A DNA stretch of 47,529 nucleotides, from positions 1 through 47,529 of the IMG/VR virus record IMGVR_UViG_3300034349_000030, one strand, 5' to 3'. Source of the stretch: a virus (Duplodnaviria; Caudoviricetes). The notes under the pieces are model-generated. The model searched no databases and was not told the DNA's origin. It saw nothing but the letters and a program-made list of their open reading frames with translations. Position numbers and translations under genes: made by a program. How positions within the stretch are numbered: the first letter of the stretch is position 1; each line of letters starts with the position of its first letter. Positions 1 through 47,529 of this stretch are shown piece by piece.

Positions 1-127
1 CCACCGATGTAATACCCTTTGGACTTCGTGGGAGGAGGATGGTGGCCGCATCCGCGTGGAGTTGGGCGTCCGTGACTTTGGCGTCCGTGACTTTGGCGTC
101 CGTGACTTTGGCGTCCGTGACTTTGGC
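1..127. repeat. Terminal direct repeat, left copy (circular assembly overlap)
   Basis: 1-127 is identical to 47403-47529. 127 is a common assembler k-mer length and a gene reads through the join, so this is most likely an overlap rather than a physical terminal repeat. Confidence 0.9.
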
Positions 128-133
128 CTTCAT
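1..133 (-). CDS. 5' part of the J-domain protein gene (continues at 47402 down to 47158)
   Basis: ATG at 133 overlaps the TGA of ORF 130..336. It reads MKAKVTDAKVTD...ITSVELDAHW in frame across the circular join into ORF 47158..47406. Confidence 0.8.
   Translation of the reverse strand, partial: MKAKVTDAKVTDAKVTDAKVTDAQLHADAATILLPRSPKGITSV
65..127. repeat. 15-bp tandem repeat (GGCGTCCGTGACTTT)x4, encoding (AKVTD)4 on the minus strand
   Basis: Four perfect units at 65, 80, 95 and 110 plus a partial unit. Confidence 0.95.
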
Positions 134-336
134 GACTTCACCTCGAGGAGTTTTCGAATGGCCTCCAACTGCGCAACGCTAGGAACCACCCAAGCCTCAC
201 CAATCCTGTTAGCCAAGCGGGGTGATATGTGGGCGAAAAGCTCAACCGTTCCCGTACTTACGTTCTTGCGCACCCCGATCACAACCTCACTCGACATGCC
301 CAAAGCCACCGGAACGGAATCGTAGGCAGCGGGCAT
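130..336 (-). CDS. Hypothetical protein (68 aa)
   Basis: Tiles tightly between neighbours: 2-nt gap upstream, ATGA overlap downstream. Confidence 0.7.
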   Translation of the reverse strand: MPAAYDSVPVALGMSSEVVIGVRKNVSTGTVELFAHISPRLANRIGEAWVVPSVAQLEAIRKLLEVKS

Positions 337-338
337 CT

Positions 339-758
339 CTAACCCTCCCGTGGAAATGGAGTTCTGCTAGCTCGCATAGCCTTGTGAGCCTTGTTGAGCT
401 TCGCCACATACTTGGCCTGCCTCTCCCCGGAGAGCCTCGAGAACTGTTGACCCGCGCGCATCGCTTGGGGGCCGTGGACAGGGAGATCCTCATCCCCGCA
501 ACGAAGCCCAAGAGCCTTGAGGGATCGGCACTTCTCACACATTGGGAGCGGGCCGAAAGTTCCGGGCATAGGCGTCCAACAATCGCACGCAAGGATTTGG
601 TTGTAGCGGTGGAGCTTCTCCGCACACCCTTGACACTTCGGATCGAATGTGGGAGCCGCATCCCCGGCCTTGCCGCGCTTGCATTGGCCGCAGAGATTGA
701 GGTGAAAGCCGTTGGCCACTCGGCCGCGGCCCTTAGCAACGTGGGTGTGAGCGGCCAC
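339..758 (-). CDS. Cys-rich hypothetical protein
   Basis: In-frame GTG at 758 sits just after the stop of 761..1072. Several CxxC pairs (CGQC, CQGC, CEKC). The longer 899 start overlaps the upstream gene. Confidence 0.6.
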   Translation of the reverse strand: MAAHTHVAKGRGRVANGFHLNLCGQCKRGKAGDAAPTFDPKCQGCAEKLHRYNQILACDCWTPMPGTFGPLPMCEKCRSLKALGLRCGDEDLPVHGPQAMRAGQQFSRLSGERQAKYVAKLNKAHKAMRASRTPFPREG

Positions 759-760
759 GG

Positions 761-1072
761 CTACGCAAACCCCATCAACTTGAGGGCCGCAAGCCGGGCC
801 TTGATGAAGCGGAGGGCCTTGGAGTGATCGTCCACGGAACCATCCGAGGAGCACACCACAAAAACCTTGGAGTGCTTCGAGAACCCATAGGAGCCACACA
901 TCTTCCGGCGGGCAGCATGGATCCGCTTGATCGCCTCCTCATGTTGAGACTTTGCCTCCCGCAACCGCGCAAGCTCACCTTGGAGCGCGGCCTCCTCGAG
1001 CTTGCGCTTGAGGGTGGGGGCTTGGAGTTGTGGAGATAGCTTCGATGGTTTCTGCGATGCCATATACCTCAT
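761..1072 (-). CDS. Hypothetical protein with coiled-coil N-half
   Basis: ATGA overlap with the upstream ORF, purine-rich RBS-like sequence, operon tiling. Confidence 0.65.
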   Translation of the reverse strand: MRYMASQKPSKLSPQLQAPTLKRKLEEAALQGELARLREAKSQHEEAIKRIHAARRKMCGSYGFSKHSKVFVVCSSDGSVDDHSKALRFIKARLAALKLMGFA

Positions 1073-1734
1073 GAGCCGTGCTTCCTTCCTTTGGTCAACT
1101 TCGTATTACGCTTTATCCTACCACGGCCTGTGGAGCTTGCAACCTTGGGGCCGCTCTTTTCAATTTGCTTCTCCTTGGGAGATCGATAGGGGTAGGAGGC
1201 GGATGGGATATAGGTGCGGGTAACGATGGGGCTTGGAATCTTGCGCTTTCTCTTGACGATCCGTGTATCGGGCTCTTGCACCCCGGGAAACGGCCTCCGG
1301 ATTGAGACGGGTGCCCTCAACTCGTCCATCGTGAACACGTAGCCTTTACCCCCACTCACCTTGGAACGTGAGCCCGCTTTCCCGGATTGCATAGTGGGCC
1401 CCATCGTGACCTTGCAACCTTTGGCATGGATAGCCTTGCGGGGAGATGGACGGGCAGCGGCCCGGACGGATGCACGTTGCGGAAATATGATCGGATATGC
1501 TCGAGCCCACAAGACCTTGGAGAACTTCCGGATCGCCTCGTTGAGGCTCCCCACCAAGACGTGAGGCAAGCCGGATGGGATGCGAGCCCTCCCCTTGCAC
1601 GCTTGGATGAGGAGTCCCCATGGCATCCCCCAACACGCATCGCAAATCTTCACCCCCTCCACGTGTTGGAACTCCGTCCACCGGCCCGGCCTGATTTCCT
1701 TCCCGCAAGCCGGGCAACAATCCTTGGTTGGCAT
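1069..1734 (-). CDS. Basic hypothetical protein with N-terminal zinc finger
   Basis: ATG at 1734 preceded by GGGGAAAGGGAAGT. CPACGK...ICDACW motif. Overlaps the HNH ORF by about 390 nt, so the true start is uncertain. Confidence 0.5.
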   Translation of the reverse strand: MPTKDCCPACGKEIRPGRWTEFQHVEGVKICDACWGMPWGLLIQACKGRARIPSGLPHVLVGSLNEAIRKFSKVLWARAYPIIFPQRASVRAAARPSPRKAIHAKGCKVTMGPTMQSGKAGSRSKVSGGKGYVFTMDELRAPVSIRRPFPGVQEPDTRIVKRKRKIPSPIVTRTYIPSASYPYRSPKEKQIEKSGPKVASSTGRGRIKRNTKLTKGRKHGS

Positions 1735-4297: not shown

Positions 4298-4516
4298 CTA
4301 GGCACGCAAGCGGACACGTGCCCGCTTGTGAGGCTCCGCGGCATCTTTCACCGGAGCGCCGATGCGTGCCGGAGCACACCCAAGCTTGTGTCGAAGATAC
4401 TGCCGAAAGGCCATGGGAGGCTTTTGGGACGCGGCTTCGTCCTCAAGGCGTTGGATGTCGCGGATTGGTAACGAAAGGCCGAGGGTGCGCGCGTAATCGA
4501 GAGGATCCTTGGACAT
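4298..4516 (-). CDS. Small hypothetical protein (72 aa), first gene left of the origin
   Basis: In-frame ATG at 4516 (MSKDPLDYARTLG) of ORF 4298..4657, which fills the gap before the primase. Confidence 0.45.
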   Translation of the reverse strand: MSKDPLDYARTLGLSLPIRDIQRLEDEAASQKPPMAFRQYLRHKLGCAPARIGAPVKDAAEPHKRARVRLRA

Positions 4517-4643
4517 GTCGTTACGAATCGCATACTGCGGGTTTGGTGTCAAGTAAGGAAGAATGTAAGAAGGAACGCATAACCCGACATCTAGAAACCG
4601 CGTCGGAGTGCCAAGAAGTGACGCGAAGTCAAGCGGAAACCTC

Positions 4644-4959
4644 CATTCCATCACCATTCCATCATTCCATCATCGTTTTGGCCTTGATGGAATGCAGGAA
4701 ACCCCTGCCCGCATAGCAGTTGACGCGTTTCCATTCCATCATTCCATCATCACTACCTAAAAATAGAAGAGAGAAAAAGAAAGAAGAGGAAAGTAGAGAG
4801 GGAACTTTTGCCCTTTATGATGGAATGATGGAATGGAAACGCGTCATCCCCTACAACTAAAGCCCTTCCCAGCATTCCATCAAGAAAAACGATGCTGGAA
4901 TGGATTCGGGCCCGAGGCCCGTTCTCCCCCGTAAAACAAGCACCTTCCGTCATTCCATC
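4644..4959. repeat. Iterated CATTCCATC array with a long inverted repeat; putative replication origin
   Basis: Ten CATTCCATC copies (plus: 4644, 4655, 4663, 4732, 4740, 4873, 4951; minus: 4686, 4819, 4827). Perfect 30-bp inverted repeat 4721-4750/4817-4846 around a purine-rich spacer. Non-coding and next to the primase-helicase; origin function is inferred. Confidence 0.7.
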
Positions 4960-5004
4960 AACGTTTTGGGCTTGTTTCGTTCCTTCTTGCTTGTCGTTTT
5001 GTGG

Positions 5005-5063
5005 TTGACAATTTCCAAATCGGTGGGGACGGTGGGTGGCATTTCTTCAAGTAATACTTGACA
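5005..5063 (+). promoter_or_regulatory. Candidate late-arm promoter/operator region
   Basis: TTGACA at 5005 and 5058. The 15-bp palindrome TCAAGTAATACTTGA (5047-5061) overlaps the second. No consensus -10 at 17 bp spacing. Confidence 0.35.
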
Positions 5064-33376: not shown

Positions 33377-33397
33377 GGGGGTGTGGTCTCCTTTGCA

Positions 33398-33592: not shown

Positions 33593-33610
33593 TTGGCATC
33601 CTCCTTTGTA

Positions 33611-35080: not shown

Positions 35081-35496
35081 GCCTTGGCCCTCTTCAATTC
35101 ACGTTGAGCTTTGCAAACAGAGCACCCCGGGGCGCAACGTTGCCCTTTCTTCTCCACCTTGAGGGTGAGTGGGGACTGTCCCACCTTCTTGGTTTTTGCG
35201 TAATACTTGAAGAGGGCAAGGTACTCCTCCGCAAGCTCCTTGGAGTCGATCGTGGTGACTTGATAGCCAAGCTTTTTCATGCGGCCTTGCCATTGGGCTT
35301 GGAGCCGCGTTGGCACCTCCCCCGGCTTCTTGAACTCGATCAACCACGGCCTCCCACCCAAGGCAAATACGATTCGGTCCACCTTGCCGCGCTCACCAAG
35401 GCCGTGGAACTTGGGGCACGGGAACGGACAGCGACGGGCAAAGCTTCGCTCAATGTCGGACTCGAGCACATTCTCCACGGGCTTAACGTTTGGCAT
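35077..35496 (-). CDS. VRR-NUC domain nuclease
   Basis: E..IE, G..DR, IEFK.PG...T.LQ; usual position upstream of SNF2. Confidence 0.88.
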   Translation of the reverse strand: MPNVKPVENVLESDIERSFARRCPFPCPKFHGLGERGKVDRIVFALGGRPWLIEFKKPGEVPTRLQAQWQGRMKKLGYQVTTIDSKELAEEYLALFKYYAKTKKVGQSPLTLKVEKKGQRCAPGCSVCKAQRELKRAKA

Positions 35497-35950
35497 GTTG
35501 GGGCCTCCAAATCACCACCACAGACGGGAAAAATCCGGACGCTCTATAGGGCCCGCCGGTTAGAAACCTAACCCTGCCACGGATGTAGCGCACCTCCACC
35601 GATCCGATGGCAATTCCCGGGACTATGTCCTCATGCCACCAAGCCAAGTCTGTAGACGCTGGAAGTAGTCCAACCACTAAAGCCCCCTTGCTTTGAGCTT
35701 CCCGGGACTTCCTTGTCCAGGCATATATTTCGCGGCCATAGGGTGGGTGCATAAAAACGCGAGATGCTCCCCAAGACCGCGTAAGACCATCATCCCTCTC
35801 CGTGAAAAACCTTTCGCACTTTGCGGTTTTCTTAGAGGCGCAAGGATCTAGGTTGAAGTGGAACTCATCGTTGAGAGGTTGGAATATTTCAGGAGGAGTC
35901 TCCCACAACCTCCCATTCCCGTTGTATCTACCATTATTGCGCGCCTGCAT
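35483..35950 (-). CDS. dam: Phage DNA N6-adenine methyltransferase (lambdoid Dam-like family)
   Basis: WETP, F.LD.CA, AKC, DGL...W, motif IV HPPY, LLPA.TD..WW, RGR..F. ATG 35950 is preferred. Confidence 0.85.
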   Translation of the reverse strand: MQARNNGRYNGNGRLWETPPEIFQPLNDEFHFNLDPCASKKTAKCERFFTERDDGLTRSWGASRVFMHPPYGREIYAWTRKSREAQSKGALVVGLLPASTDLAWWHEDIVPGIAIGSVEVRYIRGRVRFLTGGPYRASGFFPSVVVIWRPQHAKR

Positions 35951-35994
35951 ACCGTGTATTACGGCACGGTTGTTAGATGCCGCAATGGTGCGCC

Positions 35995-36714
35995 TTAATG
36001 TGGGCATGGGCCGCCCTTCGTCCTGGTAAGGTGGCACCATCCGCAGTGGTTACCGGGGGTAGGGATGAAAGCCGTATCGTTGAACATGGGAGCAAACCTA
36101 CGCTCCCACTTCTTGATGAGCCCGGGCAGATCCGAGCGCACGAAAACGCGGCCCTTCTCCGGAACGATCTCCCCCTCCTTGAGATACCAGAGAGCAACGC
36201 GGACAGTGTCCACAACCGGGGAGTCATCACAGAGGCCCCCAATTGCGTAAAGCTCGAGTTGATCCTCATCGGATTTGCGTATTACTCCGTTTTTGTAATC
36301 GATGATGTGGCGGACAAGGTAGAGCTTCTTGCCTGCCTTCTCCTCCTTGTCATACTTCATATCCATCTTGATCCGGTAGCGAGGAGACGGCTTGCCGGGC
36401 TCATCAAACCAAGACGTCGGCTTCCAATTCTTATCAAGGGCCAATTCGAATTGGGGTTGGAGGATCCTCTTCATCTTCCGCAGCTCATCGAACTCGAGCT
36501 TGAAGCGCTCCAACGTCTTGGGGCACGTCTTGAGCTGCCCGGTAGCATAGAGTTCCGCGTCCTTGTCGGCCTTGCTGCCATCATCCTTGGCCTTAGAGCT
36601 TGGCTCCTCCACCTTGTCGATGTGCTTTTTCTTGGCCTTGAATGCGCACTTCTCCCACTCGGCCAAGCGGGAGTAGCTCCCCGCCGTGAACTGTCGGATC
36701 CGTTTGATTGGCAT
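35995..36714 (-). CDS. PD-(D/E)xK exonuclease (Cas4/RecB-like)
   Basis: SYS.L.....C, D, IDYK.G, QL.LYA, C..C...CP. Confidence 0.88.
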   Translation of the reverse strand: MPIKRIRQFTAGSYSRLAEWEKCAFKAKKKHIDKVEEPSSKAKDDGSKADKDAELYATGQLKTCPKTLERFKLEFDELRKMKRILQPQFELALDKNWKPTSWFDEPGKPSPRYRIKMDMKYDKEEKAGKKLYLVRHIIDYKNGVIRKSDEDQLELYAIGGLCDDSPVVDTVRVALWYLKEGEIVPEKGRVFVRSDLPGLIKKWERRFAPMFNDTAFIPTPGNHCGWCHLTRTKGGPCPH

Positions 36715-36717
36715 GTA

Positions 36718-36936: not shown

Positions 36937-36938
36937 GG

Positions 36939-37271
36939 CTAGGCCTTGGCCTTCTCACCGGAGATGGTGGGTGTGCAGAGGCCTTCCGCCTCCCGGGCTT
37001 GGATCCGGCGCTCCATGAAGTCCACCAAAGGACGCAACCCCTCCCCATGATGTGCTAGCACATCCGAAGCCACTCCCCGCATGATGAGCGCTTCCCCGAA
37101 GGGGCAAAGACTCCGGACAAGCTCCGCGGCCTTCGGTGGAGTCATTCCCTCCACCAAGCCTTTTACAGCGATGAAAAACCCAAACCCCAAGCACTTGGGG
37201 CATCCACCATCAATAATCATTGCGTGATCTCCGAAGTCCGAAACGAGTGCTAGAAGTTTCTTGATGTCCAT
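36939..37271 (-). CDS. Hypothetical protein (110 aa)
   Basis: Operon tiling; CPKC.G.G motif. Confidence 0.65.
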   Translation of the reverse strand: MDIKKLLALVSDFGDHAMIIDGGCPKCLGFGFFIAVKGLVEGMTPPKAAELVRSLCPFGEALIMRGVASDVLAHHGEGLRPLVDFMERRIQAREAEGLCTPTISGEKAKA

Positions 37272-37277
37272 GGTGTA

Positions 37278-39392
37278 TTACGCTGCTTTCCGTAGCTTGA
37301 ACGCTACTGTGGTCCCAGCCTTGGTCTTTCTGAACTCCTCGAGGCAAACGATCTTGCCCTCCTTGTCGTAGGACTTGAGGGCCCCCCAACTCTCAAAACT
37401 GTATTTCCCTTCCGATAGCATGGGAGGGGAGAAGGTGACTCCCTCCATTGCCTTCCGCATGATTTCCATCCCACGTTTGAGGTGGGCCGCGGGCACCGAG
37501 GCTAGAAGCTCATCGTGGGCCGCTAGAATGAGCCGGTGGCCTCGAGCCTTGGCATTGTGGTAGCGAATCATCGCCTCCTTGGTGACGTCCGCAGCTCCAC
37601 CTTGGATGAGGATGTTTAGCATGCGATATGCAAAGTCCCGCATCTTGCCGTCAATGAACTTGGCAGCTTCACAGTAATACTCGCGGCCTCCCCACGTTCG
37701 GATCGGCTCTCCGCGCTTGGCCCGGCCCTTCATGTCGTCATTGAGAGCCCGGATTCCTGCAACCGCAGTGTAGATTGCTGCCTTGATCTGTTTGGCCTTC
37801 TCCACCGTACATCCCATCTTTCGGGCAAGCTTGCCCACACCCATCCCATAGATGATGCCGAAAACCGTTGTCTTTATGTCTTTTCGGGAGAAGGTGGATT
37901 GGAGGAGATCGTTGACGAGGCCTCGGATAAAGCCGTGGACGTCAAGCCACCAATTAGCTAGGTAGGAGTCGAGCAAAACCCCACCCTCGTAATACGCAAG
38001 GATGCGCAACTCTTGCTGGGAGTAGTCCCGATCAATGAACACCTCCCCCGGGTTGTATGGGATGAGGTAAGTGCGCAAGTTCGGGAGGATCGGCAAGTCC
38101 TCAATGGGGGAGGCGGGGAAGGCCTCGATCTTGGCGAACGTGGCCGCATAGTCCTTGTGGGCCTCTCCCATCTTGGCAAGGGTGCGCTCAATGTCGTGGC
38201 GGAAGATATCCGGGAACTCCTTTGCGAGGTTTTGAAAGTTCGGGGTGGAGGAAGCTCTCCCCGTTCGGGCTCCGTTCTTGTCTGTTCGGGTTGTGTGCCA
38301 AGTGCAGAAGATGAGGCCCCCGGTACGCTCCGCCACGCGCAACCAAGGATGCATGAAGGTACGAAGCGAGGTTGCGAGCTTCCCACGGTAGGTGAGAACG
38401 GCCCGAAATTGCTCATCGGATACCCCGCGCTCTATGGCCTCCTTGTTGGTTTGGATCTGCGGCTTGCCTCGTTTCCCTCCCTTAGTCATTCCGAGGAGGC
38501 CAACGTCCGCAACCTTGGCCGCAACCATCGCGGATACGAGAGCCTCCCCGGCGTCAATATTGAACACTCGGCCGAGGCGATCCCATATCCAAGCATCGAT
38601 GCAGTCAAGGACGTCATCATAGAAGCCAACGTCCCGACGGAGCTTCTCGAGGTTCACTCGAGCCCCTTGCTCCTCCATCTCCATGATGCAAGGGAGGAGC
38701 CGGCGCTCCCGGTTGTAGGCCTCCACCATCTTCCGCCGTTGGATCTCGGGCCACACCTTGAGGGCAATGCCTCGAGTCCTCGTAACGTCTCCGATCGCAT
38801 ACTGGCTAACCAAGTCCGGAGGGGCATACGCGATGTATGCTCCCGCGTAATGCTCCGATTTCTTGGACTTTGAAATCTTCACCCCGGGCACGGGTTGGTG
38901 GGTGATGAGCCAAGTGTGGACAGCGTCCCTCTCCTCTGGCGGTTCCTTAAGAAGCCGCTCCGCATTGGGTTTGAGTTCGAACGTTGGGAGCCGTGGATCT
39001 TGGAGGAAGAGAATCCACATGGTGTCGTGGATGCGATGCCAAGCCGGCATCGGGCAGCGGAGCTTGCGGACAGCAACGCACACATCGAATTTGGCGTTGT
39101 GAAAGAGGAGCGGGAGCTTGGAGCGAAACGCCTTGAGGATGGCCTTGCGACCTTGCTTCAAGGTGTGGGGGTTCTCGTGGCCGATGTGCCCCCAAGCGTA
39201 ATACACAGGCTTGCGTCCGGGCCACCAAATAGCTACCCCCACCGGAGTGGGTGGATAGTCCGGCCTCGGCTTGATGGGCATGGACTCAAAGTCCACCACG
39301 ATCGCATCTTGGAAGGTTTTCCGGGAGACGTCGAAAGCCTTCACCACTCCATGTGCTAGCGCTATCTGGCTTCGGGCAAGGGGCTTACACAT
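37278..39392 (-). CDS. polA: DNA polymerase family A with 3'-5' exonuclease
   Basis: Exonuclease motifs DFE, HNAKFD, HDT, YA..D; polymerase motifs TGR.SS..PN.QN, DYSQQELR, K...FG..YG, IQG.AAD, HDE. Exact start uncertain. Confidence 0.96.
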   Translation of the reverse strand: MCKPLARSQIALAHGVVKAFDVSRKTFQDAIVVDFESMPIKPRPDYPPTPVGVAIWWPGRKPVYYAWGHIGHENPHTLKQGRKAILKAFRSKLPLLFHNAKFDVCVAVRKLRCPMPAWHRIHDTMWILFLQDPRLPTFELKPNAERLLKEPPEERDAVHTWLITHQPVPGVKISKSKKSEHYAGAYIAYAPPDLVSQYAIGDVTRTRGIALKVWPEIQRRKMVEAYNRERRLLPCIMEMEEQGARVNLEKLRRDVGFYDDVLDCIDAWIWDRLGRVFNIDAGEALVSAMVAAKVADVGLLGMTKGGKRGKPQIQTNKEAIERGVSDEQFRAVLTYRGKLATSLRTFMHPWLRVAERTGGLIFCTWHTTRTDKNGARTGRASSTPNFQNLAKEFPDIFRHDIERTLAKMGEAHKDYAATFAKIEAFPASPIEDLPILPNLRTYLIPYNPGEVFIDRDYSQQELRILAYYEGGVLLDSYLANWWLDVHGFIRGLVNDLLQSTFSRKDIKTTVFGIIYGMGVGKLARKMGCTVEKAKQIKAAIYTAVAGIRALNDDMKGRAKRGEPIRTWGGREYYCEAAKFIDGKMRDFAYRMLNILIQGGAADVTKEAMIRYHNAKARGHRLILAAHDELLASVPAAHLKRGMEIMRKAMEGVTFSPPMLSEGKYSFESWGALKSYDKEGKIVCLEEFRKTKAGTTVAFKLRKAA

Positions 39393-39398
39393 TTCGCA

Positions 39399-39641
39399 TT
39401 ACTCCACCGGGAAAAACTCGAGGTACTCTTGAGGAACCCACCCAACCAACATATCGATCGGATCTTGCTTGGGGATTTGCGGGACGGTATCGAAATGGAT
39501 TTCGAAAAGCGGAGCGTATTCCGTGGACAGGGATGCCCGCGTAATCTCTCCCGCCGTCCCGGGGATGAGGTAGGGACGATCAAAGCGTCCCTCGGGCAGC
39601 TTCACGATCTTGGTGAGCTGAACTCGATCCCCAACTCTCAT
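39399..39641 (-). CDS. Hypothetical protein (80 aa, small beta domain)
   Basis: GAGGAG RBS, ATGA overlap, MRVGDRV start. Confidence 0.65.
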   Translation of the reverse strand: MRVGDRVQLTKIVKLPEGRFDRPYLIPGTAGEITRASLSTEYAPLFEIHFDTVPQIPKQDPIDMLVGWVPQEYLEFFPVE

Positions 39642-39976
39642 GGGAGTGGCTCCTCATGCTCCGGCAAGGGGCCATACTTCAAGGTCCCGCCCACCGGCCC
39701 GGAGAGCTTTTGCGTTGGTGTGGGAGTTGGTGGTGTGGGCCCATCGCAAAGCTCGAGGGCCGGGCACTTCTGCAACCTATCACGGAGACGAAGCTCCTCC
39801 CGGATCTTCCGCTGCATCTCCTCCCGGTCCCACCGCACTTGCTCCGCAACTCGGAATGCGCGGTGGGCCGCATGATGATCCCCCGCATCGTGGAACTCAT
39901 CGCAAATCCTCCTCCACTGCACTTCTACCCCGGCCCACCTTACGGGAATCCTCAACGGAAATTGATAGTAAATCAT
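39638..39976 (-). CDS. Hypothetical protein
   Basis: In-frame ATG at 39976 (MIYYQF) of ORF 39638..40195; start uncertain. Confidence 0.5.
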   Translation of the reverse strand: MIYYQFPLRIPVRWAGVEVQWRRICDEFHDAGDHHAAHRAFRVAEQVRWDREEMQRKIREELRLRDRLQKCPALELCDGPTPPTPTPTQKLSGPVGGTLKYGPLPEHEEPLP

Positions 39977-40287
39977 CGTCGATTCCCCACCTTGGCAAGT
40001 TCGGTCCGTGCCCGCTGGCTCCGGACTCTGTTCAAGCGGCCTTGGATGCGTTGGAGCCACACCTCCCGGGCCTTCCCATCCATCTCCCGTGAGCGTAGCT
40101 CGAGGCAACGGCTTTCGGTTGCCGTGCGTAATACTCGGTTGAGTTCTATCCATGTTGTTGGCTGCATTCGGGGGAGCGTTGGAATCGGATCCCACGGCAA
40201 CGATGAACCTTCCTCATCGATCCGCGCTCCCTGGCACCGTTTAGCGGATGCTGCTAATCCGCCGGAGGTTGGTGGGTGCCATACCAC
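39973..40287 (-). CDS. Possible hypothetical protein
   Basis: Its stop overlaps ATG 39976 (ATGA) and it fills the gap. The start is probably downstream of 40287. Confidence 0.4.
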   Translation of the reverse strand: MVWHPPTSGGLAASAKRCQGARIDEEGSSLPWDPIPTLPRMQPTTWIELNRVLRTATESRCLELRSREMDGKAREVWLQRIQGRLNRVRSQRARTELAKVGNRR

Positions 40288-40322
40288 CGTGAGAGTTCAC
40301 AACGCTCTCACGTACCATGGAC

Positions 40323-41132
40323 TTAGAACTTACCACCCTTTCGAGCCTTGCCCTTGGAGGCCTGAGCTTCCTTGTCTCCTCGAGCTTCGGGCTTGGGATA
40401 CGGAAACTCGATCGCTTTCGCTACCTCGAGATGCCGATCCTTGAGGATGGGGAGGATATCCTCATCCTCCACTTCGTTGATGGGGGCGAACTTGAGGGGG
40501 CCCTTGTTGCTGCCCGTGCAAGAGATTTCCGTGAACATTGCCCACGTGGGCCGGAGGAGAGTGTCCTTGCATGACTTGGCGTATCCTGCAAAGTCCTTGA
40601 TCGAGGTGGGAGGAACCTCGAGGTAATACACGGTTGCGGCCTTGATGGCAGAGGCATCGAGGGCTTGGAAATCCCCGGCCTTGTCGAAAGTGCCCGCGCA
40701 AATGAGACCGAGGCGGATTTTGTTCTTGCATGCCTTGCCCTTGGCCGCGGCTCCGTTGGGCTTGGTGGCCGTGCCCCACTCGTTGTGTTTGCATGTTTCG
40801 CAGTTGCCCTCGCATTGCGGCTCCGGAGCCGCATCGTGAGGGCCCATTTCGTCTTGTGCGCGGCCAAACGCATAGCAGATCGGAGGCTGCGGGTTGTCCT
40901 CATCGTAGGCCCCGGAGAAAAAGCAATTTTCCAAGACGAAGTCGAGCACCACGCAAGCAAGCCGGCTGCCCGGGATTGCGGAGCCATCCACCGTGAGGGT
41001 GCCATCCTTGATGGATACGAACTTCCCACCACCGATGCCCGCAACCGTGCGAACGCTCTCCTCCGCATACTTCGCCAGCTCCTCACTCCACTTGATGAGG
41101 GCCTTTTCTTCAACTTTCGCTGTCTTTGCCAT
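40323..41132 (-). CDS. Conserved phage replication protein, putative ssDNA-binding/annealing protein
   Basis: Y....P..P.C.A, C..C..N.WG, GKAC.N, VPPTS...F..Y pattern typical of PolA-type replication modules. Function is inferred. Confidence 0.6.
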   Translation of the reverse strand: MAKTAKVEEKALIKWSEELAKYAEESVRTVAGIGGGKFVSIKDGTLTVDGSAIPGSRLACVVLDFVLENCFFSGAYDEDNPQPPICYAFGRAQDEMGPHDAAPEPQCEGNCETCKHNEWGTATKPNGAAAKGKACKNKIRLGLICAGTFDKAGDFQALDASAIKAATVYYLEVPPTSIKDFAGYAKSCKDTLLRPTWAMFTEISCTGSNKGPLKFAPINEVEDEDILPILKDRHLEVAKAIEFPYPKPEARGDKEAQASKGKARKGGKF

Positions 41133-41169
41133 GATCTGCATTCCTTCCGTTTGGTTGTCTGGTATTACA

Positions 41170-41625
41170 CTATCGACGCTTAGTGAGGGAGATCGTTGGG
41201 ACGTTGAACACGTCCACCCCCGGAACCTTCTTGCCCGCCTCCCACCGCTCCTTGACTGCGGCCTTGGATACGCGCTTCTCCATAAGGTCAAAACTGCCCG
41301 TTGCTATGATGTGCTTCCAGAGCTTTGGCCAGCTCCCCACGGTGGGGACTTTCCGCATCTCCACCGTTGCCCGGACAAGCTTCCCGACAACCCCCTCCGC
41401 ATCGTCCTTGGGGAGTTCCTCAATGAGATGGTTGGTGATTGCTTGGACGTGGGCCTTTACTAGTTCAACCTCTGCATTGAGGTGGTGGAGATGCTCCCGC
41501 AATGCATGTAGCTCATCCGCACAAGCTCCCATCGTGGTGGGAATCTTGAAGTTGGCGGCGGCCTCAAAGATTTCAACGGCCCGGGCTACCTCCCGATCCT
41601 TGGTCGCGGCCTTCTTACTTGCCAT
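41170..41625 (-). CDS. Gp157/Gam-like small replication-module protein
   Basis: Coiled coil, then W..L...I...G.FDL..KRVS..AV.E....G..VPGV. GAGGGGG RBS. Confidence 0.55.
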   Translation of the reverse strand: MASKKAATKDREVARAVEIFEAAANFKIPTTMGACADELHALREHLHHLNAEVELVKAHVQAITNHLIEELPKDDAEGVVGKLVRATVEMRKVPTVGSWPKLWKHIIATGSFDLMEKRVSKAAVKERWEAGKKVPGVDVFNVPTISLTKRR

Positions 41626-42268
41626 CGGATCCCCCTCGGTTGAATGTTGGCAGCTCCGGGAAGTAGTGCTTTGTCCGGTGGTGGGTTTGGATGAGCCAAA
41701 TCGCAGTCTCCACCACTTGCTCCACCGTGCGGCCCTTGGTGTCGATAATGTGCCAGTCCGACGCGTCCGATCGGAACCCTTGGTGATGGGCCCACAAGGA
41801 TGAGTATCCGTGGGCAAGGCTCGCCATGCGGGCCATGCCGCGCTTACCATAAGAATCCTCATTCCGGGCATGGACGCGATCGAAGCATACGATTGGATCC
41901 GCCCATAGCAGAATATTCAATGCCGGCTTTGGTAATACGGAGTTGAGATTTTGGATCCACTCACCGGAGAGCCCATCTTCCTTGCCGTAAACGTAGCCCG
42001 ATACCGTGTAACGATCGCAAATGAGTAGGCCGGGGTGGAGGAGCGCGGGGAGGTTCTCAAGCCGGTTGGCAGTCTGCAACGCCTGAAACACCACCGGATC
42101 GATACTTTCGGGATTCTGCCTCATCATCCGACGGACCGAGATGCCCGCGGGAGTGTTGAAGGTGGGGAACCTCTGCCACCGTGATCCGGGCATGCGTGCA
42201 GCAACCCGCAGTGAGATCTCCGTCTTTCCAACTCCGTCGATCCCTTCAAACGCAACTATCTCTGCCAT
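41615..42268 (-). CDS. tmk: Thymidylate (dTMP) kinase
   Basis: FEGIDGVGKT P-loop, RFP, ANR, CDRY..S...Y, P.P...I.L. Confidence 0.92.
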   Translation of the reverse strand: MAEIVAFEGIDGVGKTEISLRVAARMPGSRWQRFPTFNTPAGISVRRMMRQNPESIDPVVFQALQTANRLENLPALLHPGLLICDRYTVSGYVYGKEDGLSGEWIQNLNSVLPKPALNILLWADPIVCFDRVHARNEDSYGKRGMARMASLAHGYSSLWAHHQGFRSDASDWHIIDTKGRTVEQVVETAIWLIQTHHRTKHYFPELPTFNRGGSDGK

Positions 42269-42322
42269 GATGGTCCTTTCGTGAAGAGCAAGAGCCTATA
42301 GTTTACACTCGGGAGTGTAAAG

Positions 42323-42697
42323 CTATTTCTTCAATCCGGGGAAGGTGCTTAGGATGCGCTTTTGGGTGCTCAAGAGGATGCTCCGGCACCTCCGACGATA
42401 GAGCATGCGGCCAATGATGGGGAGCCGCTCGAGCTTCGTCTTGGGGGTGTGCTTCATCACCTCGAGCAAAGCCTTGTGGTCCCCCATTCCGTAACACCAC
42501 CCATAAATCAAAGCCTTCTCGAGCGGAGAACCACCCTCCCGGGCTCTCCGTTGGTTCTCCGGCCTCACGGCTTGGGAGATGGTGGCCGCGATGGCAGCTC
42601 CGCACGTTGGACAGCAACCATATCGAGGCTTGTCGAATGAGTGCCCGAATGGACAACGGTAGGTCACGGACCGGGGGCCTAGGATGATTTCAAGCAT
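42323..42697 (-). CDS. Hypothetical protein with a zinc ribbon
   Basis: GAGGA RBS and ATG 42697; CP.GH...CPTC. Confidence 0.5.
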   Translation of the reverse strand: MLEIILGPRSVTYRCPFGHSFDKPRYGCCPTCGAAIAATISQAVRPENQRRAREGGSPLEKALIYGWCYGMGDHKALLEVMKHTPKTKLERLPIIGRMLYRRRCRSILLSTQKRILSTFPGLKK

Positions 42698-42929
42698 CGG
42701 AGTCCTCACTTTCAAGAGCCTCGGCTTCCATCGCTGCATCATGGGCCCGGGAGGCAATGTCATCCGCGAACATCTCCTCCACAAAGGCCCGGGCAGACTG
42801 CCCGGCCTTGAAGGCCGGCTTCGCAATCTCTGCAAGCTCATAGGGATCATCCTTGCCCCAAAGATCGTCCGGGCACCCAAGCCTCTTGGAGACTTGCACC
42901 ACCGCGGTTTTCCATTGCTTGAACGTCAC
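42690..42929 (-). CDS. Hypothetical acidic protein
   Basis: GTG 42929 overlaps the upstream TGA; GGAGGG RBS. Confidence 0.6.
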   Translation of the reverse strand: MTFKQWKTAVVQVSKRLGCPDDLWGKDDPYELAEIAKPAFKAGQSARAFVEEMFADDIASRAHDAAMEAEALESEDSDA

Positions 42930-43249
42930 TTTGAGCCCCTCCCCTTCAACTTGGCGGACTTCCGTTCCGCGGCCCGCTCGCATCGCCAGCACCAATCCGC
43001 GAACTCGGCCTTGAGGTGCCTTTGTAGGATCTGCGAAACAATACTAGAAGCAATACGGGCACGCTTCGCAGCCTTGGTGAGGGAGTTGAATGGGAGCCCC
43101 AAGCCCGCGGCCCCAAGGGCAACGGACAAAACGATCCGCTGCCTCTCCATAGCCGTGACAACGGCCCCCATTGCCATCTCCACTTGGTTCTTGGAAAGCC
43201 CGAATTTACGGAGGTTGTGCTTGATTTGTGTGAAATCGGCTTTTGTCAT
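42926..43249 (-). CDS. Hypothetical protein (107 aa)
   Basis: GAGGT RBS, ATGA overlap. Confidence 0.7.
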   Translation of the reverse strand: MTKADFTQIKHNLRKFGLSKNQVEMAMGAVVTAMERQRIVLSVALGAAGLGLPFNSLTKAAKRARIASSIVSQILQRHLKAEFADWCWRCERAAERKSAKLKGRGSK

Positions 43250-43521
43250 CTCGACACCTCAAAAGGCTCCGTAACCGTTTCGCGTAATACCTTAATGACA
43301 TCCTCCGGAATGTCTAGCCGAAGCGCTGTCACGGTTAGGTCCTCAAGTTTAGTTTCGGAATCGCGAGACTCCCCGGGGTGTAGGGTTTTCCACGCGGAAA
43401 GAATGTGCCCCCTGTGAACCTTCCAAAGATCGTCCCGAGTTCGCGCAATGATAGCGGGATTTTCCTTGCATGCTTGCACGGCCACCGGAATCCCTTTGTA
43501 GCAAACCACCAATGCCATCAT
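43246..43521 (-). CDS. Hypothetical protein (91 aa)
   Basis: ATGA overlaps at both ends. Confidence 0.65.
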   Translation of the reverse strand: MMALVVCYKGIPVAVQACKENPAIIARTRDDLWKVHRGHILSAWKTLHPGESRDSETKLEDLTVTALRLDIPEDVIKVLRETVTEPFEVSR

Positions 43522-43967
43522 CGGAGCACGTTATCCACGCAGCCCCACTCACAGCGGTTGGGGCCTTGTTGAAGGTGGAACCCCTCCGGGCACTCGTTGG
43601 GCTCATCGCACGGCGGGAGGGTTGCAGGATCGATGTGCTCCACCGTACCCACCGGGGGAGTGGCTTCGGGAGCTTGCTCCACCACCGTGGTGGTCTCATC
43701 GGTGGGGAGGGGCTCGCAAGCCGTGAGGGTGAGGCAGGAGAGGAGGAGCGCGGCCAAGCACGCTTGGAATGTGCCCGGAATGGTGGGCCGCTTCTTGGGG
43801 GTGGTGGGCCTCACCACCATGAGGGAGCCCCCAAACGCTGCCCGGTAGGTCCGGCGGGCTTGCTCCACGGTGATGGTGCCCGAGTTAACTAGGGCCTCGA
43901 GGCGGGCAAGAGACCGCTCCTTGCCGGCGAGACGGAGCACGGAGATGAGTTCTACAGTTGTTGCCAT
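43518..43967 (-). CDS. Membrane/lipoprotein-like protein with a Cys-rich C-terminus
   Basis: AAGGAAGG RBS. Internal hydrophobic stretch ending LTAC, Pro/Thr linker, four-Cys domain. Confidence 0.6.
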   Translation of the reverse strand: MATTVELISVLRLAGKERSLARLEALVNSGTITVEQARRTYRAAFGGSLMVVRPTTPKKRPTIPGTFQACLAALLLSCLTLTACEPLPTDETTTVVEQAPEATPPVGTVEHIDPATLPPCDEPNECPEGFHLQQGPNRCEWGCVDNVLR

Positions 43968-44012
43968 GGTGTGAATCCTTCCTTTTACGTATTACCTTGC
44001 AGCTTGTGTGCC

Positions 44013-44045
44013 ACTATGCCGGAGGGGCTTAGGCTCCGGCATAGT
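44013..44045. other. Intergenic hairpin (12-bp stem, 9-nt loop); possible terminator or processing site
   Basis: ACTATGCCGGAG / CTCCGGCATAGT; no poly-T tail. Confidence 0.55.
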
Positions 44046-44054
44046 TGGGACTAC

Positions 44055-44307
44055 CTACAGGGAGTTCCTCGCAAACGGCACCCTATCGATCGCGGCCATT
44101 AGTGCGCGGCCGTTACTCGGAACGAGCACGAAGCCGCGTTGAAGATTGAACGTCCACCACTCCCCGTTAGGTGCCGCTGCGGTGGATTCCGTCTCGTAAT
44201 ACTCTCCGGCTACGCCAACCCGTCGCACGATCCGCTTGTTTCCGAATGCCGTCCTAATTGTCTTTTTGGTCCTCAACTGCCTTCTGACACATCTCGGCAA
44301 ACTTCAT
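44055..44307 (-). pseudogene. Small gene possibly split by a 1-nt slip in an A5 run
   Basis: GGAGG RBS and ATG 44307 give only 17 codons. Deleting one A at 44263-44267 fuses them to ORF 44055..44300. Confidence 0.35.
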
Positions 44308-44370
44308 GTGACTACCTCCAACTGACGTTTTATGTCGCTACTTTTTGCATGTGGTGACGTATTACGGCCC

Positions 44371-44910
44371 TTATGGGCAAAGCCAAACGATAAACCCAGC
44401 TATGGCAAGGAGGAAGAAAGCGGCACCCACAAGGAAGCGCCGGACGGCCCTCTCCTTGGCTTGGTGATGCTTCCCCACCGTCTCCGCGTAAGCCTTCCCA
44501 AGGGCCTCGGCCTCCTCATCCGTTACCACGTCCACAAAGGCCGTGGAGCGCTTGCAGTGGTGCATATAGCCGAGGGAATCCGCGCAATGCTCGGATGTGC
44601 CGGGGAGGGCATCTACAGAGCGCACCATCTCGGAATAAGTCTCGAGTTGACTTTGAATTTGCTCCTCGAGCTTCGCCTTGGTAATGGTGAGCGGGATGGG
44701 GGACCCGAAGTCCACCGGAGCTTGCATCTCCACCAAGGAAACCTCCGGAGCCTCCCACCGCACGCAGCAATCGGCCCCACCCTTGGATGAGCAATGAGCC
44801 TTGGCGCAATTCTCACACAGGGTGGGGACGTGGGTAGGCGTCCCATCCTCGGCCTCGTAGGGGATGAGCATCCGGCAATCTCGGCAACCGCAGCGGGCAA
44901 ACATCTTCAT
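44371..44910 (-). CDS. Cys-rich protein with a C-terminal transmembrane anchor
   Basis: CxCxxC and CxxC motifs; ends FLVGAAFFLLAIAGFIVWLCP. Confidence 0.7.
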   Translation of the reverse strand: MKMFARCGCRDCRMLIPYEAEDGTPTHVPTLCENCAKAHCSSKGGADCCVRWEAPEVSLVEMQAPVDFGSPIPLTITKAKLEEQIQSQLETYSEMVRSVDALPGTSEHCADSLGYMHHCKRSTAFVDVVTDEEAEALGKAYAETVGKHHQAKERAVRRFLVGAAFFLLAIAGFIVWLCP

Positions 44911-45335
44911 GGTGTGGGATCCTTTTCAAGGTCTCTTTCGAATTCAAATTCTGAGTCCTCAACGATCGTGGCAACAGTTCTATAGACTCCCGTCTCCACC
45001 CAATGCCGGAGAGCTGCAAGGCCAAGCGAGGTGGATTGAAACACCTTGGCCCCTCGAGCGATGAAGTCCCTAACCTCCCCGCGGCTTCCTTCCGAGTTCT
45101 CCCACCCATCCACCACGATCGCCGCGTCCGCTCTCCGGGCAAGCTCCATGGTGCCATCCAACCAAAACTTCTCGGTCAAGAGGCCGTTAAAGTGCCGGGT
45201 GTTGGTGTGGGGGCAAAGTGGCATCGCTCCGACATGGGCCACCTTGAGAGCAAGCCCCTCGGCATGCCGCACGTTTTGCTCCACCTCCCATGGGGTTTTC
45301 GCACGGAATGGGCCAATGATATAGACAACTTTCAT
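44907..45335 (-). CDS. Nucleoside 2-deoxyribosyltransferase-like protein (DUF4406/DUF1937-like)
   Basis: VYI.GP, P.CPH, L...D, WE.S.G...E. Confidence 0.8.
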   Translation of the reverse strand: MKVVYIIGPFRAKTPWEVEQNVRHAEGLALKVAHVGAMPLCPHTNTRHFNGLLTEKFWLDGTMELARRADAAIVVDGWENSEGSRGEVRDFIARGAKVFQSTSLGLAALRHWVETGVYRTVATIVEDSEFEFERDLEKDPTP

Positions 45336-45338
45336 GTA

Positions 45339-45563
45339 TTACGCTCCTTTTCTAAACTTACACTCCTCTGCCGAGTAGACAGCTTGGAGCTTGGCAACAA
45401 TCTCCTCCGCGTCGATGATATCCTCGAGAAGATCCGCGCTCAAATCTCCGGTGGCTTCGGCCACCTTGCGATCGTGGCGGAGTCCCCGAAGGTGGGCCAC
45501 CCAACGATTCAAATCCTCAGAGGCCTTCTGCAACCGCACGTAATTGTCTGCTTTCGCTGCCAC
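45339..45563 (-). CDS. Hypothetical protein (74 aa)
   Basis: GGAG RBS; 3-nt gaps to both neighbours. Confidence 0.7.
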   Translation of the reverse strand: MAAKADNYVRLQKASEDLNRWVAHLRGLRHDRKVAEATGDLSADLLEDIIDAEEIVAKLQAVYSAEECKFRKGA

Positions 45564-45566
45564 GTA

Positions 45567-45881
45567 TTACGCTCCAATCTTCCCAGGGTGGAGTCTCACG
45601 AACTCGTGAACATCCTCGAGCTTGGCCGTGATGGGGAGGTTTTGGGCCAGCTCAACCCTAGCCTTCCGGAGAGCCCGAAGATCATCCTCGAGGCCTTGCC
45701 AAGCAAGCGGGGGAGCCTTTATCGGACCATCCCCACGAATGTGGGAGGCCACTCGGGTTACATGCTGCCACGTCAAGCGCTCCAACCGGGCATTCCTCTC
45801 ATCCATGGCAGCGGCACGGTAATACGCTTGCAGGTTGCCAAGACGTCCAAGATCCTCGATTGACATGAGGTGTGGGCTCAT
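45567..45881 (-). CDS. Hypothetical protein (104 aa)
   Basis: Operon tiling, AAGGA RBS. Confidence 0.7.
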   Translation of the reverse strand: MSPHLMSIEDLGRLGNLQAYYRAAAMDERNARLERLTWQHVTRVASHIRGDGPIKAPPLAWQGLEDDLRALRKARVELAQNLPITAKLEDVHEFVRLHPGKIGA

Positions 45882-45883
45882 TT

Positions 45884-46120
45884 CTAGGATTCCTTCCGCG
45901 AGAACGTGAGTTCAGCGTATTGCCGCAAGCTATAGGTTTTGAATTGCGTGCGGTACCCCTTCGGTGATTTGGCATCCAAGAAGCTCCGGACATACACCGA
46001 GTTGAACGGAGCACCATCCGGGAATTTATGGGTGAGGCGGGCCTTAACCGCAGCCTCAGAAACCTCCCCAACCACGATGAGCCGGGGAAATTTTGCTATT
46101 TGTTCCATCGTGGATCCCAA
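45884..46120 (-). CDS. Hypothetical protein
   Basis: Operon tiling; likely start at MEQIAK. Confidence 0.55.
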   Translation of the reverse strand: MGSTMEQIAKFPRLIVVGEVSEAAVKARLTHKFPDGAPFNSVYVRSFLDAKSPKGYRTQFKTYSLRQYAELTFSRKES

Positions 46121-46308
46121 AACCTATAGGTGTTGCGCTTGAACATGGGATGGTAGACACGGAAGAATAACCCGCGTGCATCCTCCCCAACCTTTGCCAC
46201 TTGCGTGGAGAGCGGCCCGCACACAACCCCAAGACGTTGGCAGTCCTTGAGGCTTAAACTTAGCTCTACCCAATCCCCAACCCGCAGCGCTGGAAGATCC
46301 GCTTTCAT
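46096..46308 (-). CDS. Hypothetical protein (70 aa)
   Basis: GGAGG RBS, ATGA overlap. Confidence 0.6.
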   Translation of the reverse strand: MKADLPALRVGDWVELSLSLKDCQRLGVVCGPLSTQVAKVGEDARGLFFRVYHPMFKRNTYRFWDPRWNK

Positions 46309-46523
46309 CCCTGAAAAGCCTCCATTGGTTGCGTGGCCGTGAGATCCGAAGCCTTGGCCTCTGCCACGATTTCAGCATCATTGAGGTGCGAGACGGCCGC
46401 ACACCACATGAGGTAGGCAAGTTCCGTCTCGGTGTAGGTTTCGACGTTGGCGAGGGTGCTAGACACCACCGGGCACTCAACGGTTTTGCGGTCAAAAGAA
46501 GTGGGCCGTGTGTTCGTCTTCAT
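46305..46523 (-). CDS. Hypothetical protein
   Basis: In-frame ATG at 46523 (MKTNTRP) of ORF 46305..46550. Confidence 0.55.
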   Translation of the reverse strand: MKTNTRPTSFDRKTVECPVVSSTLANVETYTETELAYLMWCAAVSHLNDAEIVAEAKASDLTATQPMEAFQG

Positions 46524-46576
46524 GATGACAACAAACAATGCACGGCCCACGCCAAGGTTGATTTGCGTATTACGCG

Positions 46577-47077
46577 CTAAATTGGCGAATCAATCCCTTC
46601 GATCCCGCCGTCCTCGAGGACGTGAGGCAACATGGGGTGCCGATCTTTGTCGCTACTTTTTGCGAGGGGTGCCGCTTTTGGGCTCTTCTTCGAAGTCTCG
46701 GCTTTTGGGCTCTTCTTCGAAGTCTCGGCTTTTGGGGCCGGCTTCTTTTCCTCCTTGGCGGGCTTGGCCTTCACCACCTTGGCGGGCTTGGCCGCAGGCT
46801 TCTCCTTGGCGGGCTTGGCCGCAGGCTTCTCCTTGGCCGCAGGCTTCTCCTTGGCGGGCTTGGCCTTCACCACCTTGGCCGCAGTACCCTTCCGCTCCGA
46901 GGCGGGCACCTCTTGGGGAGCCTTTTCCGTAGTCAATGCCCGGCTCCGGGCCCACTCGGAGGCCGTGCAGTTGCGGGCTTTCGCAAGCCGGAAAAGTTCC
47001 TCCCGCTCCGAGGGGGAGAGCCGCATGGTGAAGGGAGAAAGCTCGAGCCTTTTGGATGCGCCGATTTGGTTGAACAT
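46577..47077 (-). CDS. Ribbon-helix-helix-like DNA-binding protein with a histone H1-like Lys/Ala/Pro tail
   Basis: AAAGGG RBS and ATG 47077. FTMRLSPSEREELFRLAKARNCTASEWAR has the strand-helix-helix pattern, followed by AKPAKEKPA repeats. Confidence 0.75.
   Translation of the reverse strand: MFNQIGASKRLELSPFTMRLSPSEREELFRLAKARNCTASEWARSRALTTEKAPQEVPASERKGTAAKVVKAKPAKEKPAAKEKPAAKPAKEKPAAKPAKVVKAKPAKEEKKPAPKAETSKKSPKAETSKKSPKAAPLAKSSDKDRHPMLPHVLEDGGIEGIDSPI
46674..46882. repeat. Coding tandem repeats of the H1-like tail
   Basis: 27-bp GCTTTTGGGCTCTTCTTCGAAGTCTCG twice; recurring CCTTGGCGGGCTTGGCC and GCAGGCTTCT units. Confidence 0.85.
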
Positions 47078-47157
47078 ATGAAATCCCTTTCGTGTGACGG
47101 TGGACGCGATTGGTCCGACCAAGTTCTCGCGTAATACACCAACCAATCGAGGTGGTG

Positions 47158-47529
47158 TCAAGTTCCTTCTTGCTTACTTGCTCCGGATCCTCTGCAAGCC
47201 GGGCAGCGGAACGTCAAGGAGCGGAACCCCTTCAACAACGTAATACGGCCCACCCCATCACAAGTTTGGCAGCGGGCTTCATTCTCCCGAAGCCACTTAC
47301 GCACCCGTCGATAGGCCTCGAGCCTCGAGGTGAAAAGCTCCGCATCCCCTCCACGATCGGGGTGCCACTCGGGAGCCTTCTCCCGCCAATGAGCGTCAAG
47401 CTCCACCGATGTAATACCCTTTGGACTTCGTGGGAGGAGGATGGTGGCCGCATCCGCGTGGAGTTGGGCGTCCGTGACTTTGGCGTCCGTGACTTTGGCG
47501 TCCGTGACTTTGGCGTCCGTGACTTTGGC
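47158..47529 (-). CDS. J-domain (DnaJ-like) protein with a CxxCxGxG zinc finger; 125 aa including the start across the join
   Basis: WREKAPEWHPDRGGDAELF...EAY has the HPD motif; CQTCDGVG and CPACRGSG follow. Confidence 0.8.
   Translation of the reverse strand, partial: AKVTDAKVTDAKVTDAKVTDAQLHADAATILLPRSPKGITSVELDAHWREKAPEWHPDRGGDAELFTSRLEAYRRVRKWLRENEARCQTCDGVGRITLLKGFRSLTFRCPACRGSGASKQEGT
47403..47529. repeat. Terminal direct repeat, right copy
   Basis: Identical to 1-127. Confidence 0.9.

Follow-up and report, generated by a model that had tools for sequence, protein, structure and literature searches.

Why does a phage genome of 47 kb carry the same 7-bp word, GTAATAC, at 55 places, and what might read it? 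The question is raised by IMG/VR virus record IMGVR_UViG_3300034349_000030, which was analysed over its whole length of 47,529 nucleotides (the window). The window is the whole virus record, the 47.4-kb genome of a peat myophage; a 127-bp terminal repeat starts at 47403, the non-redundant length is 47,402 bp and the guanine-cytosine (GC) content is 58%. The phage is uncultured, and part of the window DNA was found in nine sequencing runs, all labelled peat metagenome. At least half of the window's words were present in four of these nine runs, two of which may be the source, and runs X7–X9, with small shares of the window DNA, were left out of the habitat assignment. The analysis indicated that the word is real, strongly selected and clade-specific, and that it behaves like a dispersed binding-site lattice. 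The explanation to which we give most weight, held tentatively and at a little under an even chance, is that the word is the binding site of an early protein of the phage itself, encoded at 46577–47077 and predicted to join a ribbon-helix-helix (RHH) domain to a histone H1-like tail.

Enrichment, spacing and turnover of GTAATAC

The word forms the following array, for which all gene-based counts use our own calls of 70 genes.

9..47246, strand unassigned: GTAATAC/GTATTAC array of 55 sites, 37 inside predicted genes, 9 on TAA stop codons and 9 outside gene calls

All 55 coordinates listed in the original prediction were exact, and the spacing claimed there held, with a mean gap of 862 bp and a largest gap of 2672 bp. 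A 56th copy lies at 47411, inside the terminal repeat. The nine codon readings cited earlier (four GTA ATA and five GTA TTA) were correct, and site 35956 adds a fifth GTA ATA (Val-Ile) spelling. The description of the word as a palindrome held only in part: there is a dyad around the central A:T pair, but GTATTAC is the reverse complement of GTAATAC, so the two spellings are the two strands of a single double-stranded word, a pseudo-palindrome, and not two variants. The G/C-centred form, GTASTAC, occurred only twice.

Markov models predicted 3.3 sites at order 0, 0.8 at orders 1–2 and 4.2 at order 3, compared with the 55 observed. The earlier estimate from base composition, at a GC content of about 60%, was about 3. 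GTAATAC ranked first among 7-mers at orders 0–3; it was not the top 7-mer in order-4 and maximal-order models, both of which absorb the word itself. Neither the codon and dicodon tests nor the comparison with AT-rich 7-mers, which the original prediction had named as possible challenges, reproduced the sites. The 37 in-gene sites compare with 4.5 ± 1.8 in synonymous-codon shuffles (maximum 13 in 1000) and with 8.6 ± 2.4 in a dicodon model (maximum 17 in 200) whose training data retained the GTAATAC sites; genome-wide, the codon shuffles gave 3.0. The next unrelated 7-mer with at least five A/T had 15 copies, and the z-score against codon shuffles was 23.6 for GTAATAC and 11.1 for the best unrelated 7-mer. 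Together, the Markov, shuffle, dicodon and 7-mer comparisons ruled out chance or codon bias as the source of the sites.

Within genes, the sites use five frame/strand classes. Stop codons and positions outside genes hold 18 of the 55 sites, although non-coding DNA amounts to only about 2.7 kb, and 9 of the 27 TAA stop codons carry the word. Where the amino acids permit a synonymous spelling, the word is used at 37 of 86 places: 14 of 15 in the xxG-TAT-TAC (Tyr-Tyr) class and 5/25, 8/18, 5/14 and 5/14 in the other four. Tyr-Tyr itself occurs 17 times against 8.4 expected, which suggests some cost at the protein level, and the sites contain 5 of the 26 TTA and 5 of the 43 ATA codons. No orientation bias was observed, either by strand (32 vs. 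23) or by direction of transcription (26 vs. 29), which argues for a signal read on double-stranded DNA. The flanks showed only a mild preference for C before (28/55) and G after (21/55) the word, and palindrome arms of at least 5 bp were present at 2 of the 55 sites; a longer consensus, a spaced dyad and a repeat family were rejected because the flanks beyond this C/G preference are not conserved.

The spacing of the sites is more even than expected. The coefficient of variation (CV) of the gaps was 0.68, compared with 0.975 for random placement (P = 0.0013), and was the lowest among 184 6-mers and 21 7-mers of similar abundance; the smallest gap was 109 bp (P = 0.0005). In a codon-opportunity null, in which the 18 non-coding sites were fixed and the other 37 were redrawn among opportunities by class, the CV was 0.86 (P = 0.0036), whereas the largest-gap and short-gap tests reached only P = 0.06. 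With the saturated Tyr-Tyr class left out, used opportunities lay farther from existing sites than unused ones (P = 0.005). Overall density is 1.16 per kb; the virion block has 0.92 per kb and the remainder of the genome 1.42, a difference with P = 0.14. Moreover, 3 of the 20 one-mismatch variants reached z ≥ 3, against a base rate of 2% among 4461 comparable words: GTATTGC (15 vs. 5.0 expected), GTATGAC (9 vs. 2.1) and GTATTTC (7 vs. 2.2). Adding the 32 near-miss sites lowered the CV to 0.64, compared with 0.82 for 32 random additions (P = 0.0008), indicating that gaps are filled; the three near-miss words were chosen after their counts, but not their positions, had been seen, and two of them tested singly gave weaker results (P = 0.14 and 0.03). 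The spacing and near-miss pattern would fit a coverage function with diminishing returns.

Among relatives, a search with the capsid returned 19 proteins at E ≤ 1e-20, the nearest being 78% and 59% identical, and capsid profiles run against three collections identified 39 loci. A first capsid scan, of 20 loci, had found no enrichment except in L022, which is identical to the window. The locus with 78% capsid identity, L272 (68% nucleotide identity to the window), has three sites in 1948 bp: two lie in the protease gene, where they encode Gly-Ile-Thr, and the third coincides with a stop codon. None of the three is matched by a window site at the homologous position, and window site 11668 is absent from L272, where it falls in a gapped spacer, so that 0 of 4 sites are common to both over about 1.9 kb. 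With L022 and L272 set aside, 15 sites were counted in the 431,674 bp of the 37 other capsid loci, some of them duplicates; for three sites in L272, this rate gives a Poisson P of 5e-5. Five capsid-related records counted whole had 1–6 sites each. No enrichment was found at four loci of polymerase relatives (0–2 sites) or at 80 loci of helicase relatives (0–8 sites), where the word was never the top 7-mer. A scan of viral contigs for a triple-site pattern returned 126 loci from 12 of 64 parts, mostly clustered repeats with low flank diversity; these were read, without translation, as probable repetitive coding sequence, and the scan was not useful. Judged by the four sites compared between the window and L272, GTAATAC is the mark of a small clade, and its positions turn over.

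These observations uphold the proposals that selection acts on the DNA word itself and that the sites form a dispersed address system: the word occurs in all frames, on both strands, at stops and in spacers, at even spacing, and with turnover in the nearest relative. Since the spacing is even, the flanks are not conserved, the L272 sites lie elsewhere and distant relatives are unenriched, selection appears to act on the density of the word and not on its position. The same observations bear on whether the sites serve DNA packaging or ejection, as motor pausing points or as anchors for an internal virion protein. The even spacing throughout the genome, with no gap above 2.7 kb, would suit such a role, and a role as an internal core protein is conceivable for a basic protein of the H1 type. 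However, the orientation bias expected of a polar translocation or packaging signal is absent, relatives that share the head module do not have the word, and the gene of the candidate is located outside the virion genes, in the leftward non-structural block. We therefore give this possibility, one of three functions put forward in the original prediction, only a very slight chance.

The protein encoded at 46577–47077 as candidate reader

The candidate gene and the sites discussed with it are as follows.

46577..47077, minus strand: candidate reader, 166 amino acids, isoelectric point 10.1, with a predicted N-terminal RHH domain (about residues 14–50) and a Lys/Ala/Pro-rich, histone H1-like tail
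47131..47137, minus strand: site 47131, 54 bp upstream of the candidate gene start, overlapping the expected −10 place of a TTGACA (47161–47156)
46567..46573, minus strand: site 46567, directly after the stop codon of the candidate gene, one of only two sites with arms of at least 5 bp
5047..5061, strand unassigned: site 5051, extending to the 15-bp palindrome TCAAGTAATACTTGA and overlapping a TTGACA at 5058, positioned before the rightward virion block

The candidate carries a net charge of +18, residues 51–140 are 70% Lys/Ala/Pro, and its gene belongs to the leftward non-structural block and not to the virion genes. Its N-terminus matched phrog_3431 (Arc-like, E = 5e-5) and, below the cut-off, PF21983 (NikA-like, E = 4e-4, 20.8 bits against a cut-off of 27). 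A single-sequence AF2 model, with a predicted local distance difference test (pLDDT) value of 66, placed helices at residues 22–34 and 39–47. Foldseek gave no match at E ≤ 0.001 and 27 weak ones, among them NikA (2ba3, root-mean-square deviation 1.5 Å, E = 2.4); many of these, including NikA, TacA2, VapB, AmrZ, PutA and AtaR, we take to be RHH proteins. In addition, atlas leads at 0.83–0.88 included Arc and RHH_1 clusters, whereas a PF01402 search of the window genome found nothing. The RHH signals from PHROGs, Pfam and Foldseek agree in suggesting an RHH fold.

Among 1.84 billion representatives, six proteins matched the candidate at E ≤ 0.001. One, P0032, the only known orthologue, is a full-length relative (E = 7e-11, 56% over 62 amino acids, 41% identical overall) in which the predicted reading strand SPFTMRLS is identical and the basic tail is kept; the other five comprise one weak 100-amino-acid match and four long, unrelated-looking proteins. 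Searches of the word index, the phage collection and the viral contigs found no RHH relatives with DNA. The candidate also had no match in any of the five unenriched capsid-related records with 1–6 sites; the gene of the window itself, a trivial control, was detected. A second RHH-looking open reading frame (ORF), 4298–4516 on the minus strand (72 amino acids), was rejected as a candidate: it resembles an RHH protein by eye, without family, atlas or homologue support. It lies downstream of a TTGACA at 4552.

If the candidate is the reader, a predicted RHH dimer of the 46577–47077 protein would dock on GTAATAC, and the DNA on either side would be wrapped and compacted by its basic, histone H1-like tails. 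A coat could then form over the phage DNA, and the host chromosome would escape, the word presumably being much rarer there; in two genomes of GC-skewed lineage that contain capsid relatives, the counts were 29 sites over 5.0 Mb and 23 over 3.7 Mb. The benefit would be organisation or shielding of the replicating phage DNA, and the few sites at putative promoters (47131 and 5051) may double as operators. A fuller version, which we regard as possible but doubtful, is a sequence-addressed phage chromatin in which an RHH-anchored, H1-tailed protein and a genome rewritten as an even 7-bp lattice would let phage DNA, and not host DNA, be coated for compaction or for protection from defences. Among the functions first proposed, nucleoid-type binding now has a concrete candidate at 46577–47077, the methylation mark is weakened and packaging is disfavoured.

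Several points weigh against the candidate as reader. The RHH signals are all weak (sub-cut-off in Pfam, E > 1 in Foldseek, pLDDT 66, atlas 0.88, PF01402 negative), and phages often carry small RHH genes that serve as ordinary autorepressors. The co-occurrence of candidate and word comes from a single clade; the five negative records are not close (39–47% capsid identity) and may contain RHH genes too diverged for the search to detect. Positional turnover rests on four sites, of which 11668 falls in a gapped spacer, and two L272 sites lie 15 bp apart, so that spacing is not strict. Furthermore, only four near-match partners occur within 30 bp of the 55 sites, whereas the RHH systems cited below bind paired or contiguous sites.

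NikR, which we take to be an RHH protein, offers a comparison at the level of the word, together with two other systems. NikR recognises the half-sites GTGTTAC and GTATGAT (PMC545781), which differ from GTATTAC by one and two changes, and the enriched near-miss GTATGAC is intermediate between GTATGAT and the word. The RHH protein ParB (omega) of pSM19035 binds 7-bp repeats (PMC9499535), and CdbA, an RHH protein of the Myxococcus nucleoid, binds more than 550 sites while affecting transcription little (PMC10313047). In contrast to the paired half-sites of NikR (PMC545781) and the contiguous repeats of ParB (PMC9499535), the sites here mostly stand alone as 7-bp words; CdbA belongs to the host and is moderately specific (PMC10313047), whereas the candidate is phage-encoded.

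Cluster O mycobacteriophages likewise have dozens of unoriented dyad sites across the genome, in and between genes, for which a dimeric phage protein is suspected (PMC4351075). Their 17-bp site (7+3+7 bp, 34 copies) is mostly conserved in position and lies in genes in about one third of cases (PMC4351075). Unlike it, the word here has 7 bp, is two-thirds in genes, approaches codon saturation and turns over in position, with no conserved flanks and arms of at least 5 bp at 2 of 55 sites. The earlier statement that the word is not recognised as a described phage motif holds, within the literature searched, for the word itself and not for dispersed phage palindromes, which are known from Cluster O. 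Our literature search, which left most subscription papers outside its scope, found no description of a GTAATAC/GTAWTAC lattice or of a phage RHH-H1 protein tiling its own genome.

The same RHH protein might instead act mainly as a transcription regulator, the sites being dispersed operators or roadblocks that time expression as stoperators do. Consistent with this, 18 of the 55 sites lie at stops or outside genes despite about 2.7 kb of non-coding DNA, sites 47131 and 5051 overlap TTGACA-containing elements, and the PHROG match is labelled Arc-like repressor. Site 47131 could possibly be an autoregulatory operator, a weakly drawn suggestion from its position; a consensus promoter scan did not call the TTGACA promoter at 47161–47156. 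In contrast, 37 of the 55 sites lie inside genes, their direction relative to transcription is balanced (26 vs. 29), sites at junctions are not the same in the window as in L272, the spacing is even and not clustered at promoters, and no integrase was found among the 71 ORFs scanned. Cluster A mycobacteriophage stoperators likewise comprise more than 20 sites for one phage protein across a genome, but these are 13-bp, asymmetric, transcription-oriented, intergenic sites bound by a helix-turn-helix repressor monomer (PMC9283540); none of these properties holds for the unoriented 7-bp word. Regulation as the main function is, in our estimate, improbable.

Possible methylation and host-read marks

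The window also encodes an enzyme that could in principle write on the word.

35483..36040, minus strand: Dam-family (PF05869) adenine methyltransferase with HPPY for NPPY, disfavoured as writer of the word

The word could be the target of this phage methyltransferase, or of a methylation-driven mutational ratchet of the HIP1 type. The PF05869 match is strong (E = 1.6e-26), and W-centred 7-bp palindromes are a usual form of type II sites, which counts for this reading. However, five records with a 68–70% identical methyltransferase have 0, 3, 3, 0 and 1 sites; these are five of the six closest homologue records, and the one left out, a 4.5-kb fragment (L008), has 0 sites. The window enzyme has HPPY where NPPY is present in 9 of 9 aligned homologues, so that the catalytic motif is not intact, and a contig from run X3 that spans the gene has the same letters, confirming HPPY in a second run. 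From its sequence, the HPPY enzyme is possibly inactive or repurposed. The nearest characterised homologue checked, M.Phi93DAM (Phi93_04, 45.6% identical), methylates GATC (PMC4190342). Moreover, one-mismatch precursors number 57 against 37.2 ± 5.5, an excess and not the depletion that we would expect from a repair ratchet of the kind proposed for HIP1 (PMC5861425). Close homologues in genomes without the word, the HPPY motif and the GATC specificity of the characterised homologue thus weaken the methylation-mark proposal, and we consider it very unlikely.

Cyanobacteria have a comparable short dyad word, HIP1 (GCGATCGC), which exceeds expectation more than 15-fold, occurs in every frame as well as in non-coding DNA, and has favoured one-mismatch variants (PMC5861425); a role in nucleoid structure has been proposed for it (PMC5861425). 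The excess here, 55 sites against 0.8–3.3 at orders 0–2, falls within the 15- to 300-fold range of HIP1. GTAATAC is neither GCGATCGC nor a described variant of it, however, and HIP1 positions are conserved between related genomes (PMC5861425), whereas 0 of 4 are shared with L272 in a small sample. The word is an AT-rich 7-mer of a 47-kb phage with regular spacing of about 0.9 kb, whereas HIP1 is periodic at 10–90 kb (PMC5861425), and unlike HIP1 it shares its genome with a candidate reader gene. Hyper-abundant words such as HIP1 have been without a known reader for decades (PMC5861425), and the 47-kb genome described here combines the word and its near misses with one small candidate for a reader. 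If the proposed binding is true, a phage would be able to rewrite its genes so that a self-specific protein coat can form, the positive counterpart of avoiding restriction sites. It would also offer a model of the selection that lies behind iterated words in general.

A host protein could also read the word as a self or handling mark, in the manner of Chi, HIP1 or a host nucleoid protein, and the phage would accumulate it to pass as host DNA. Phages LLS and P1 provide a precedent in their accumulation of Chi, one per 1.9 kb (PMC12315714); as here, Chi in these phages is a short word at the top of its length class, at about one per 1–2 kb (PMC12315714). Strong avoidance of CAG/CTG is common to the phage (0.31 of expected) and L272 (0.23), compared with 0.49–1.54 in the 37 other capsid-related loci, which implies that host-imposed word selection is strong and points to shared selection. 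The even spacing and the turnover fit a host-read mark equally well. On the other side, no HIP1-like enrichment of GTAATAC was seen in 151 genomes of the phylum of G009 (maximum about 0.24 per kb) or 61 of the phylum of G006 (maximum 0.25), against 1.16 in the phage, a weak negative in that the sampled phyla exclude the typical peat phyla. Chi is asymmetric, oriented and read by host RecBCD, with 20 of 23 LLS sites in one orientation, and it contains the commonest Leu codon (PMC12315714). The word, in contrast, is pseudo-palindromic, unoriented (32 vs. 23 by strand, 26 vs. 29 by transcription) and costly in rare codons. We judge a host-read mark rather unlikely, though well short of negligible.

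The avoidance is visible in individual words of positions 1–47402, where CAGNNNCTG, CTGGAG, CTGCAG and CAGCTG each occur 0 times and CAGCAG once; CAG avoidance was mostly not seen in other capsid relatives. GGCG, GACC, CGAC, GTAC and GAGCTC are also avoided in the window, GAGCTC and GTCGAC being absent, and CTCGAG has 91 copies. As to the host, the DUF2130 gene (32183–33376, minus strand) had its best plasmid matches, 42–45% identical, in Bradyrhizobium and Mesorhizobium, and the DUF2130, amidase and portal matches gave no usable pointer.

Genome organisation and other repeated words

Family matches among the 71 ORFs scanned placed terminase, portal, capsid, sheath, baseplate and amidase genes in a rightward block at about 5.2–29.9 kb, and primase, family A polymerase, SNF2 helicase, PD-(D/E)XK nuclease, thymidylate kinase and the PF05869 methyltransferase genes in a leftward block. 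These matches included no integrase and no ParA, and neither an RNA family nor a transfer RNA was found in the window. Four runs showed no substitutions over 27500–47400, and a megablast of the first 24 kb against the phage collection gave no match.

Between the primase gene and the packaging genes, at 4640–4960, lies a cluster of CATTCCATCA repeats in both orientations, which includes a 37-bp inverted repeat (4714–4750/4817–4853); from its sequence the cluster has the appearance of a replication origin. Two helicase-related phages, L241 (2720–2985) and L227 (7582–7848), have clusters of 11 AAGTAAC repeats, again in both orientations, that resemble this putative origin. Tandem 14-bp repeats (GGCGTCCGTGACTTT-like) at 67–130 adjoin the terminal repeat. 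Within 1–47402, CCA-N6-TGG has 50 copies against 25 expected from trinucleotides and TGCCAAG/CTTGGCA has 29, counts that may stem from codon habits. In a further helicase-related phage, L211 (1–12537), TAATTA occurs in 17 dispersed copies against 2.9 expected.

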